Shown here: positions 49,092 through 51,100 of the stretch, in pieces | How the letters are laid out: the number at the start of each line of letters is the position of its first letter | Numbering within the stretch: position 1 is the first letter of the stretch | Source of the DNA: Escherichia phage vB_EcoM-LTH02 | Length of the DNA stretch: 64,000 nt | Direction: 5' to 3' (one strand) | Sequence record: PP430346 | Made by a program: the position numbers and the translations under genes | Notes under the pieces: generated by a model | What the model was told of the DNA's origin: nothing | What the model saw: the letters and a program-made list of their open reading frames with translations, nothing else | The model's database searches: none

Positions 49092-49612
49092 AATGACCTC
49101 AAAGTTATATTAAATTTTGTATTACGTTGAGTATAAAAATAAGCTATAACACCTGACTTGTCAACAGATTTTATAGCTTATTTTGGCAGATTTTTTTATA
49201 AGGCTACTGCCATCCTTCCATACATTACCTTACCACACCCTACCATACCTAACCAAACTACACCATACAATACCTTGTTAAAAGACCTTGTTTAAATGCC
49301 TTTTAAAAAGGTAAGTCTCATTTTAATGTAGCTGAGACTAACTACCCATACATTACCTTACCATACCAGACCTCACCCTACCTTAACTTACCTTACTCTA
49401 TCCTACCAAACACCACTTAAAAACCCTCTTAGAAGACTCTTAAGTGATGTAATCGGATTTTTATGTAGCTCCGATTAACTACCCATACCAAGCCTAACCT
49501 GACCGCACCAAACTTTACAACACCACACCATACCTGACCATACCAAACCTCATTAAAAGACCCTCTTAAAGACCTTTTAAAAAGGAGCCTCCGAAGAGGC
49601 TACCTAGTCAAC
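49092..49612. repeat. repeat-rich intergenic region R1 (three modules)
   Basis: Plus-strand CCATAC/CCTTACC pyrimidine tracts, each followed by a hairpin with conserved loop (minus-strand GCTACAT(T/A)AAAA); modules shared with R2, e.g. TTGGCAGATTTTTTTATAAGGCTACTGCCATCC at about 49186 and 50718. Confidence 0.6.
49576..49601 (-). terminator. intrinsic terminator downstream of gene 49613..50053
   Basis: AGCCTC-CGAA-GAGGCT hairpin followed on the minus strand by TTTTT. Confidence 0.5.
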
Positions 49613-50053
49613 TTAGAAAGGCTTTCTACGTTGCTTGTTAATGTTAGCTTTCATAGCAGCTAAGTGGTTTTGCTGTTCAATTAGTCGTGAACGTTCTTGG
49701 TGGCTAAGTGCCATAGTGTTCACATTCTCAATCGCTTGAGTGGCTTGCTTTAAAGCACGACCAATCTTACCAGACATTTTACGTTTTGCAATAGTTGCTT
49801 GATGTTTAGGTTCAACCACACGATAACCAACACCCATTGAAGCAACCAGATAAATCTTCTCTTCTTTAAGAAGTTTTTCAATGAACTTCTCAAGCCGGTT
49901 TAGACGTGTAAGCGCATAAGCCTTCATCTCATCTTCGTACTTAACAATGTCGCCTTGATAAGTTGGCTTCACAATACCTAAGAAGGTATCCATCTCAGAG
50001 TGTGATACAGTGTCACCGTAACTAAACTTTGCTGCTAATGCTTTTGTATTCAT
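49613..50053 (-). CDS. hypothetical protein (146 aa)
   Basis: ORF track; ATG start; flanked by R1 and R2 together with 50056..50643. Confidence 0.5.
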   Translation of the reverse strand: MNTKALAAKFSYGDTVSHSEMDTFLGIVKPTYQGDIVKYEDEMKAYALTRLNRLEKFIEKLLKEEKIYLVASMGVGYRVVEPKHQATIAKRKMSGKIGRALKQATQAIENVNTMALSHQERSRLIEQQNHLAAMKANINKQRRKPF

Positions 50054-50055
50054 AA

Positions 50056-50643
50056 TTAAACGTTACCTTCTGAAATAACTTCTACAGAAAAACGACCAAA
50101 GCGTGGACGCCAATCACCTACACCACAAAGGTTACCAGCATTTTCCAGAACCATCAAGAGTTCTTCTTTGGTGATTTGCTCTTCATCGAACATCAAACCA
50201 AACTCTACAGACCAATCACGGAAGATTGGACGGTAGCTCATAACTCGTGCTGTACCAATCTTAACAGATTTAGCATAGATAAAATCTGGATTCTTAGCAA
50301 GTTCTTGTGGGTTTGCTGGACAGTTCTTGATAGTCATTGGGAAGACTACATCTGTCAGCATAATAGCTCGGTCAATTACCTTACCAAGTTTGTTGAGTTT
50401 TGCACCAGACTTGATACAAGCCTCAATCATCTCACCGTTCATAACAAAACCTAGCTGCTCATCGTAGTAACAAGAAGTCACCAGTTGACTTTCTGCTAAG
50501 AGCGCATAATCTTCGTCAGTCTTTTTACGTTTACTGGACAGAGACTTGTGATATTTTGTCAGAGGGTTTAATGGGTCTGACAACGTATCGTTATGGCTCA
50601 AGAAAGGACGAGTACCAGTGATTTTGATATTTAGCAGTTTCAT
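50056..50643 (-). CDS. hypothetical protein (195 aa)
   Basis: ORF track start 50658 is GTG; moved to ATG at 50643 with SD GGAG. Confidence 0.5.
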
Positions 50644-50856
50644 AGCATTTAGCTCCACACTTTAGTTGATTGTTAAGTTGTTTGTAAAGAACCCTCAACA
50701 GAAGACTCTTTAGAAACTTGGCAGATTTTTTTATAAGGCTACTGCCATCCTTCCATACATTACCAAACAGTACTGTGCCACAACACACCATACCCAACCC
50801 CACCTAACTCTACCACACCTCATTAAAAGACCTTGTTTAAAGACCTTTTAAAAAGG

Positions 50857-51058
50857 TAAGTCTCATTTTAATGTAGCTGAGACTAACTACCCTTACCAGA
50901 CCTAGCCTTGCCTTACCATACCGTACTTTACCTTACCGTACCGTACTTTACCCTACCGTACCGGACAATACTTAACCCGACCTCGCCCTACCGGACATCA
51001 CTTAAAAACCCTCTTAGAAAGACTCTTAAGTGATGCTGGTGAGTACCCGTTGGTTTAT
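50857..51058 (-). ncRNA. candidate G/U-rich small RNA (promoter-to-terminator unit without ORF)
   Basis: Minus-strand transcript would carry GGTA(A/C)GG repeats and end in hairpin AGTCTC-AGCTACATTAAAAT-GAGACT followed by TTTTT; longest ORF is 8 codons. Confidence 0.4.
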
Positions 51059-51065
51059 GCTGCTC

Positions 51066-51094
51066 AGTATACTCACCAAATTTTCTATGTCAAC
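51066..51094 (-). promoter_or_regulatory. minus-strand promoter (TTGACA-17-TATACT)
   Basis: Reverse complement of 51089-51094 is TTGACA; 17-nt spacer; reverse complement of 51066-51071 is TATACT. Confidence 0.6.
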
Positions 51095-51100
51095 AACTTT

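Follow-up and report, generated by a model that had tools for sequence, protein, structure and literature searches.

Systems of the Viral Interference Programmable Repeat (VIPR) type, a recently reported form of RNA-guided DNA recognition with a non-contiguous code, were described in two bioRxiv preprints of April-June 2026 (10.64898/2026.04.26.720920, 10.64898/2026.04.26.720927) and have been proposed as the ancestor of the RAMP effectors of clustered regularly interspaced short palindromic repeat (CRISPR) systems. According to the preprints, they consist of Vipr, which is a small RAMP protein, the accessory protein Vap and ∼100-nt guide RNAs (vrRNAs), in which 9-16 YNNGG repeats precede a conserved 3′ tail; no nuclease is involved and no protospacer-adjacent motif is required. 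We analyzed a stretch of 64,000 nucleotides (hereafter the window) from Escherichia phage vB_EcoM-LTH02 (sequence record PP430346), in which two repeat-rich intergenic regions flank a pair of small genes. We are highly confident that positions 49136-51093 of the window hold a complete VIPR locus of type II that belongs to the SUSP1 clade. Its genes, all on the minus strand, are vipr, vap1 and five for vrRNAs, of which two lie upstream of the gene pair and three downstream. The locus is an already known kind of system, described in 2026.

The SUSP1 clade is defined by >90% Vipr identity. Its Vipr is a minimal RAMP with a single RRM, a G-loop and a thumb, its vrRNA genes lie on the sides of vipr with four or more tandem YNNGG units each, and its vrRNA tail is a pseudoknot. 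Small-RNA sequencing of SUSP1 showed the vrRNAs as ∼100-nt transcripts that co-purify with the neighboring protein (10.64898/2026.04.26.720920), and both co-purification of ∼100-nt vrRNAs with Vipr and target repression were reported for SUSP1 and P. fulva (10.64898/2026.04.26.720920, 10.64898/2026.04.26.720927). Vipr-bound vrRNAs were also seen by cryo-electron microscopy (cryo-EM). Targeting of one VIPR system by another was reported for the Pseudomonas clade only.

Similarity to the SUSP1 locus

The two genes between the repeat regions had been listed as unknown in an earlier note on this DNA, and the homology search proposed there identified both of them. A profile search of PDB sequences with the 195-aa protein returned entry 36pp, 'SUSP1 Vipr protein' (E = 2e-81), and 191 of 195 residues were identical to the chain in that entry. 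The structural model of the window Vipr showed the Cas7/Csm3/Cmr4 fold of the Cas7-type RAMPs. Of the 14 contact residues that the structural preprint lists, thirteen were kept (H17, K33, R39, E71, M72, K82, G87, K88, R138, C173, D177, W178, and R179). The remaining one, T175 of the pyrimidine pocket, was V175 in both the window Vipr and the SUSP1 chain (C173-G174-V175-G176-D177), and the T175 of the preprint looks like a slip of numbering or typing. The 146-aa gene, which starts 3 nt past the end of vipr, encodes Vap1. Its product was identical at 145 of 146 positions to that of the vipr-adjacent gene in two SUSP1/SUSP2-type loci (L018 and L020), in which Vipr itself was identical to the PDB chain. 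A word-based search for further Vap homologues recovered only three near-identical proteins. A weak single-sequence AlphaFold2 model of Vap reached a predicted local distance difference test score of 68, and Foldseek placed winged-helix regulators on top of its matches, none of which was significant (best E 0.23).

The agreement with the SUSP1 system extends beyond the proteins (Vipr 98% and Vap 99% identical). In both phages the locus lies between the ligase and phrog_4332 genes, and it shares the GGY/NN vrRNAs, the pseudoknot tail classes and the satellite-island target class. The two loci differ in their guides. The window has two upstream vrRNAs and five in total, whereas SUSP1 has one upstream and three downstream, four in total, and all five guide sequences of the window are different from those of SUSP1. 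The vipr-proximal tail is of the AAGG:CCTT/TGGCAG type in the window and of the GTGG:CCAC/TGGTAG type in SUSP1, and the vipr-proximal guide of the window matches tail DNA that SUSP1 carries. The first guide of the window, vr1, has 20 units, compared to the 9-16 reported.

The association of tracts and protein was also present in very distant relatives. In six metagenomic viral contigs with a Vipr homologue only 37-40% identical to that of the window, GG tracts with a 5-nt period lay on the gene strand directly beside vipr, and a vap homologue adjoined vipr there as well. In a GC-rich distant contig the unit had GGC in place of GGT. Within these distant loci (L021-L026; for example L023 2440-4000 and L026 2380-3830) the GGC/GGT tracts ran straight into 5-6 T without the pseudoknot hairpin of the enterobacterial loci. 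Tracts were also present between vipr and vap in four of them (L022, L023, L024, and L026), and L021 had large repeated modules in which GC-rich hairpins separated short tracts. A locus of the Felixounavirus type, with a Vipr 99.5% identical to that of the window, was furthermore found at 90807-92263 of GU169904.1, a record labeled Staphylococcus phage SA1 that is probably chimeric or contaminated.

By sequence matches, the source of the window is a Felixounavirus (Felix O1-like phage). The region was matched in ∼250 genomes of Felixounavirus and other Ounavirinae at 90-95% identity, with Escherichia phage KEP3 as the top match, and the window also contains a cluster of 26 tRNAs. The genes around the locus all lie on the minus strand, in the order DNA ligase (51101-52237), the 195-aa gene, the 146-aa gene and a block starting with a 127-aa gene (48708-49091). 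The neighbors are the ligase, proteins of unknown function and a helix-turn-helix (HTH) regulator. In public records both central genes are annotated as hypothetical, and the flanking DNA at most as 'repeat_region', 'promoter' or 'terminator'. When Rfam covariance models were run on the window, tRNAs alone reached the gathering score; for the VIPR region by itself the best match was an unrelated Listeria sRNA (E = 0.12). PADLOC gave no hit on the locus.

Guide RNA genes and their hairpins

The two flanking regions, R1 (49092-49612) and R2 (50644-51100), contained no open reading frame (ORF). They shared modules, as the earlier note had described. The repeats comprised a 190-nt pair with 77% identity, a 76-nt pair with 83% identity and a 93-nt family with four copies. 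The GGTA(A/C)GG repeats reported for the G/T-rich tracts were real, but the code behind them and its link to the enclosed genes had been missed. The tracts are strict 5-nt repeats of the form GGYNN, with an identity of 0.47-0.58 at lag 5 compared to 0.12-0.39 at lags 1-4. GG tracts with this period occurred in only five places on both strands of the 64-kb window, far beyond chance. The five corresponding modules occupy the intergenic DNA almost base for base, and each consists of a 5′ hairpin box, 11-20 GGYNN pentamers and a 3′ hairpin (Table 1). Guide and tail together measure ∼143 nt in vr1 and 93-103 nt in the other four. The 20 units of vr1 include an internal TGTCCGGTA(G/C)GG duplication.

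For a wider view of the unit, the window and 20 related loci were parsed together (21 loci), which yielded 88 vrRNAs with 71 unique guides. In the unit logo of these 71 guides the frequencies were 0.83 for the first G, 0.98 for the second G and 1.00 for Y (T 0.90, C 0.10), and each of the last two positions had an entropy of 1.9 bits.

All three hairpins that had been reported, with the stems AGTCTCA/TGAGACT, AATCGGA/TCCGATT and TGGCAG/CTGCCA, were present. The shared loop GCTACAT(T/A)AAAA held for the first two; the loop of the TGGCAG hairpin is TAGCCTTATAAAAAAAT. The loop is conserved because it forms one strand of a pseudoknot, pairing with an upstream GTAG. Across the 21 loci the tails fell into four classes. 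In total, 97.6% of the alignment cells were paired, compared to 30-43% in slid controls, and eight of nine pairs showed double changes. One stem changed in a compensatory way between GTAG:CTAC, AAGG:CCTT and GTGG:CCAC, and the other stem had five covarying pairs. This covariation speaks against the doubt raised earlier, that the repeats might be ordinary tandem promoters and terminators with no conserved structure.

A conserved inverted repeat was also found directly 5′ of every guide, either box A with a 19-bp stem or box B with an 11-bp stem. Box A is conserved across loci, and some copies carry a loop insertion while the stem is retained. As the stems are nearly invariant, an RNA hairpin and a DNA palindrome are indistinguishable for this element. 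Box B followed a U-run terminator in all three window copies and nearly every U5-bearing tail of class T-a in the other loci. Box A followed a promoter or a tail without U-run, and a single exception to this arrangement of boxes and tails was seen across the loci, in L018. Neither 5′ hairpin boxes nor vrRNA biogenesis are mentioned in the text of the discovery preprint (10.64898/2026.04.26.720920). Possible roles are a promoter for box B and a processing or boundary element for box A, with an RNase site and a filament boundary among the candidates for the boxes in general. The boxes may set or protect the 5′ ends of the vrRNAs and may represent an undescribed signal of vrRNA biogenesis. One sequence in these elements, GGTCTTTAAACAA, resembles the rrn boxA, and a NusB/E boxA site was considered and rejected as the element forms a hairpin.

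The minus-strand promoter that the earlier note had placed in R2 was recovered (TTGACA-16-TATACT), and it probably drives vr1. The hairpin with a U-run was confirmed as well and ends at ∼50850. A unit of roughly 200 nt delimited by these two signals had been proposed; both signals exist, but the unit would be at most a primary transcript, since the vr1 guide and tail span ∼143 nt. The broader proposal of small non-coding minus-strand RNAs, each built from a G/U-rich tract and a hairpin, was right in kind, with the SUSP1 homologues having been seen by small-RNA sequencing (10.64898/2026.04.26.720920). Four transcription units can probably be inferred, running from the promoter into vr1, from box B into vr2-vipr-vap, from box B into vr3-box A-vr4 and from box B into vr5. 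In the second of these, transcription probably reads through the vr2 tail into vipr.

Table 1. Features of the VIPR locus in the order of minus-strand transcription, with the satellite-island match of each guide (NN positions matched, site, target)
Feature	Position	Strand	Description	Satellite match
Promoter	51066..51093	-	sigma-70-type, TTGACA-16-TATACT, 11/12 consensus positions; just past the ligase stop; kept in L037-L039	
Box A before vr1	50995..51036	-	5′ hairpin directly before the guide; -21 kcal/mol, z = -5.3	
vr1 guide	50893..50992	-	20 GGYNN units; unit register and target match	35/40; L031 6944-7003; 184-aa gene
vr1 3′ tail	50850..50892	-	H-type pseudoknot (GTAG:CTAC + AGTCTCA:TGAGACT), then U5 terminator	
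Box B 5′ of vr2	50820..50849	-	inverted repeat with 11-bp stem; fold prediction	
vr2 guide	50755..50819	-	13 units; candidate anti-VIPR guide	23/26; L028 3072-3110; satellite's own vrRNA
vr2 tail	50717..50754	-	pseudoknot (AAGG:CCTT + TGGCAG:CTGCCA), without U-run	
vipr leader	50644..50716	-	box-A-like motif and ribosome-binding site	
vipr	50056..50643	-	195-aa RAMP (Cas7-like) protein	
vap1	49613..50053	-	146-aa accessory protein	
Intrinsic terminator after vap	49579..49601	-	GCCTC-TTCG-GAGGC + U5	
Box B 5′ of vr3	49550..49578	-	fold prediction	
vr3 guide	49485..49549	-	13 units; unit register and target match	24/26, first 12 units perfect; L036 6164-6202, minus strand; 184-aa gene
vr3 tail	49451..49484	-	pseudoknot (GTAG:CTAC + AATCGGA:TCCGATT), without U-run	
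Box A between vr3 and vr4	49410..49450	-	19-bp hairpin; module containing box A folds with z = -3.9	
vr4 guide	49348..49407	-	12 units; unit register and target match	21/24; L027 16008-16043; HTH/DnaD-like gene, in frame
vr4 tail and U5 terminator	49305..49347	-	identical to vr1 tail	
Box B 5′ of vr5	49275..49304	-	fold prediction	
vr5 guide	49220..49274	-	11 units; unit register and marginal target match	18/22; L029 5592-5624 and L034 6065-6097; 30-62 nt upstream of 184-aa gene
vr5 tail	49182..49219	-	same class as vr2 tail	
Inverted repeat	49136..49184	-	20 bp, around TTGACA promoter of downstream gene block; marks array end	

Parts of boxes A and B also recur elsewhere in the window. The near-palindromic AAGAGTCTTT had 51 occurrences with at most one mismatch over the whole window compared to 16 expected (for example at 6036, 10179, 10216, 48920, and 57533), and RGGKYTTTTAAK had 26 compared to 8 expected. 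A phage regulator, for instance the HTH protein at 48202-48531, may recognize both motifs as its sites. At 5440-7160, 1.7 kb without an ORF of at least 70 aa is dense in short repeats of the CTTGTTA(A/G) type, in GGGCTTTTAAG and in AAGAGTCTTT, and this part of the window could act as an origin or a terminus or be an early regulatory region.

Predicted targets on satellite islands and in rival loci

When the structural region of the phage was compared by megablast to complete E. coli genomes, chromosomal islands were detected in 417 of 5,426 genomes, and a related query found the island in 531. The tape-measure and baseplate genes of the islands are 91-95% identical, at the nucleotide level, to window positions 33279-36081. 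The island is ∼11 kb long, encodes a serine recombinase and sits either in the interval from yciI to tonB or inside a DUF72 gene (L027 13400-24700, and L028-L036). It fits the 'satellite' of the preprint, and its phage-like tape-measure and baseplate genes point to a tail-hijacking satellite. One copy of the island carries a vrRNA of its own with a sigma-70-like promoter (L028 ∼3090-3160, minus strand).

The NN positions of the guides were scanned against ten sampled islands under a rule that skips one nucleotide (xNN), with a match threshold of at least 80%. All five guides matched the islands at 82-92% of their NN positions (Table 1). Target matches were obtained with the 1-nt skip only, while skips of 0, 2 and 3 nt gave a background of 16-19 matches. 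For each of vr1-vr4, none of 100 shuffled guides reached the observed value. In the three coding targets the skipped base was the wobble position each time, and the vr1 match spanned 19 of the 20 units, with the last one excluded. Pfam returned no hit for the 184-aa target gene of the satellite and only weak HTH_Crp_2 and DnaD_N matches for the 339-aa target gene. The pattern was not limited to this phage, as among 66 unique guides taken from the 21 loci, 48 matched the ten satellites at 80% or more. Within the window none of the five guides had a self-target at or above this threshold, the best site reaching 77%. A blastn search of the vrRNA array against E. coli genomes gave no match, and satellite-borne vrRNAs are therefore not findable by blastn. 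A scan of IMG/VR for the exact full xNN pattern of vr3 returned nothing; exact scans are unsuited because natural targets carry one or two mismatches.

The guide vr2 had a further set of matches, to the DNA of other VIPR loci. In all 20 other Ounavirinae loci examined (L001-L020, SUSP1 and SUSP2 included), 22-25 of its 26 NN positions matched the tail of the vipr-proximal vrRNA, which is of the GTGG:CCAC/TGGTAG type, at a site 82-120 nt upstream of the vipr start (for example L020 2381-2419). Other skip rules gave 18-19 matches to this tail DNA and shuffled guides at most 20. A tail of the same type is present in the satellite-borne vrRNA. The window has no self-target for vr2 because it carries another tail class at that position. 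These matches suggest that vr2 is an anti-VIPR guide, and that a phage with an orphan guide of this kind could load the Vipr of a rival and direct it at the vipr operon of that rival, a reading to which we give slightly less than even chances. As part of that reading, the phages that carry vr2 may have swapped the TGGTAG-type tail for the other class and would hence be immune to their own guide.

The earlier note had proposed a comparison with related phages for insertion polymorphism, and some relatives indeed lacked both genes. Of the 230-257 records matching the region, 117 Ounavirinae records encode vipr, while a vr2-like segment at ≥90% identity was present in ∼80 of 230 phage records, and the vr2 guide is 94-99% conserved in dozens of phages. 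In Salmonella phage vB_CECAV_041 (L038 2782-3232) vipr and vap are absent, and the promoter, box A, one vrRNA, box B and a vr2-like vrRNA are kept. The endpoints of the deletion coincide with the two identical TGGCAG-type tails, and the loss in some relatives probably occurred by recombination between two such tails. The vrRNAs of the vipr-less relatives are orphan guides. Viruses that use the Cas proteins of a rival are known to carry mini-arrays or solitary repeat units. By analogy, the orphan vrRNAs of vipr-less relatives and satellites, as guides without an effector gene, could borrow the effector of a co-infecting element; unlike the mini-array viruses, the phage of the window carries its own vipr.

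Given the near-identity to SUSP1, the mechanism reported there can be assigned to this phage. Each vrRNA would be a run of GGYNN units capped by its 3′ pseudoknot, with one Vipr protomer per unit. The GGY bases would be flipped out and sequestered, and the helical filament would present the NN bases, which would form an R-loop triplex by pairing with double-stranded DNA read as xNN xNN, with every third base passed over. Once bound, the complex would block transcription without a nuclease. In this phage, vr1, vr3 and vr5 would aim at the 184-aa gene of the satellite and the region upstream of it and vr4 at the HTH/DnaD-like gene, and vr2 would aim at vrRNA-tail DNA in the satellite and in rival Felixounavirus/Suspvirus VIPR loci.

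Alternative explanations and implications

Also close among the known systems are the backbones of class 1 CRISPR-Cas complexes (Cas7/Csm3/Cmr4 on crRNA), which likewise place one protomer on each RNA repeat unit and flip bases periodically; RNA-guided DNA binding that blocks transcription is also known from type IV or dCas-type interference. In contrast to class 1 systems, the VIPR locus contains no CRISPR array, cas1, cas2 or other cas genes. The repeat search returned the vrRNA modules only, and the neighboring genes are not cas genes. The guide period is 5 nt with a sequence-specific GGY rather than 6 nt of any sequence, the pairing is gapped, with five RNA bases per three DNA bases, and a phage encodes the system and directs it at other mobile elements.

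Several tract types were dropped once the protein was identified as Vipr, namely a plus-strand Rho rut site, a G-quadruplex, a Shine-Dalgarno-like ribosome sponge, Chi-like or RecA-preferred GT tracts and a type III toxin-antitoxin array. The tracts could also be RNAs that act as protein sponges or attenuators, comparable to CsrB with CsrA or to the (G/U)AG repeats with TRAP. A multimeric RNA-binding protein would then be titrated or loaded by GGY, and NN would carry no information. TRAP binds the Bacillus trp leader RNA at conserved triplets separated by 2-3-nt spacers, with one subunit of the oligomer per triplet. It is an 11-mer ring unrelated to Vipr, its spacers carry no information, and it acts by attenuation and not by guiding. 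A triplet and a 2-nt spacer repeated 11-20 times formally resemble a TRAP site, and the RNA is predicted to be largely unstructured except for the terminal hairpins. However, the NN positions are hypervariable between phages and yet match defined satellite genes, only with the 1-nt skip, with the codon phase kept and with scores far beyond those of shuffled guides. The protein that binds them is a RAMP of the Cas7-like kind, not a ring protein, and guide function was shown experimentally in the 98%-identical system, and we consider a sponge highly improbable. We give just as little credence to the regions being DNA-level elements, that is, replication-origin iterons, R-loop priming sites beside the ligase gene, or stacked promoters and terminators. 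Their position beside replication genes, the G-rich non-template strand and the palindromic boxes, with the AAGAGTCTTT-type motif enriched genome-wide (51 against 16 expected), would suit such elements, but these would not account for the strict strand asymmetry or for compensatory covariation of pseudoknots, which only RNA needs. Furthermore, the tracts travel with vipr in very distant phages of other base composition, where the unit is GGC, and the homologous RNAs have been sequenced and seen bound to Vipr by cryo-EM.

The earlier note had taken the arrangement for a duplicated or mobile unit around two unknown genes, which was not borne out, as the flanking regions are guide-RNA arrays that serve the RAMP protein encoded between them. 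Such a VIPR locus might still be in decay, with the degenerate-unit guides (vr2, vr4, and vr5) as relics and the cassette heading for loss as in the relatives without vipr and vap. In these three guides 3-5 of the 11-13 units lack the full GG, the region occurs without vipr in about half of the related phage records, and the identical vr2 and vr5 tails offer a ready deletion route, as was taken in vB_CECAV_041. Vipr and Vap are, however, intact and nearly invariant, degenerate units still carry matching NN bases (AGTAT, TGTCC, and AGTAC in vr1), and the preprint counts internal unit degeneracy as a normal feature of vrRNAs. With the guide of vr2 conserved at 94-99% in dozens of phages as well, decay appears improbable, if somewhat less so than the sponge and DNA-element explanations.

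Some observations weigh against assigning a working VIPR locus to this phage. Several units are degenerate (AGTAC, TGTAT), and the last unit before the tail never matches the target. None of the guides had a fully perfect match in the ten sampled satellites, which are ten of ∼400-500 islands, and the vr5 match (18/22) is marginal, since it was reached by 6 of 100 and 6 of 200 shuffled guides. The 5′ ends of the vrRNAs and the promoters of this phage are predicted from the DNA, and the function is carried over from SUSP1 by 98% identity. Support for VIPR as a class is limited to two preprints and one PDB entry, and no matching family was found in Pfam, NCBIfam, PADLOC or Rfam. With these points considered, we regard a complete VIPR locus of the SUSP1 clade as the reading to be preferred by a wide measure, and the phage most likely uses it to silence a parasitic satellite and rival phages.

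The window is a textbook example of a VIPR locus that annotation libraries do not yet recognize. Both the code and the target, a satellite carrying tail genes that is present in 8-10% of complete E. coli genomes, were recoverable from sequence alone, and the analysis, which covered ten islands and 23 phage loci, provides five concrete guide-target pairs for this phage. The 20-unit vr1, the matches of vr2 to rival VIPR loci, the 5′ hairpin at every guide and the orphan vrRNAs of vipr-less relatives go beyond the preprints. They raise the questions of VIPR-against-VIPR targeting, of orphan guides and of the 5′ hairpin boxes in these phages.

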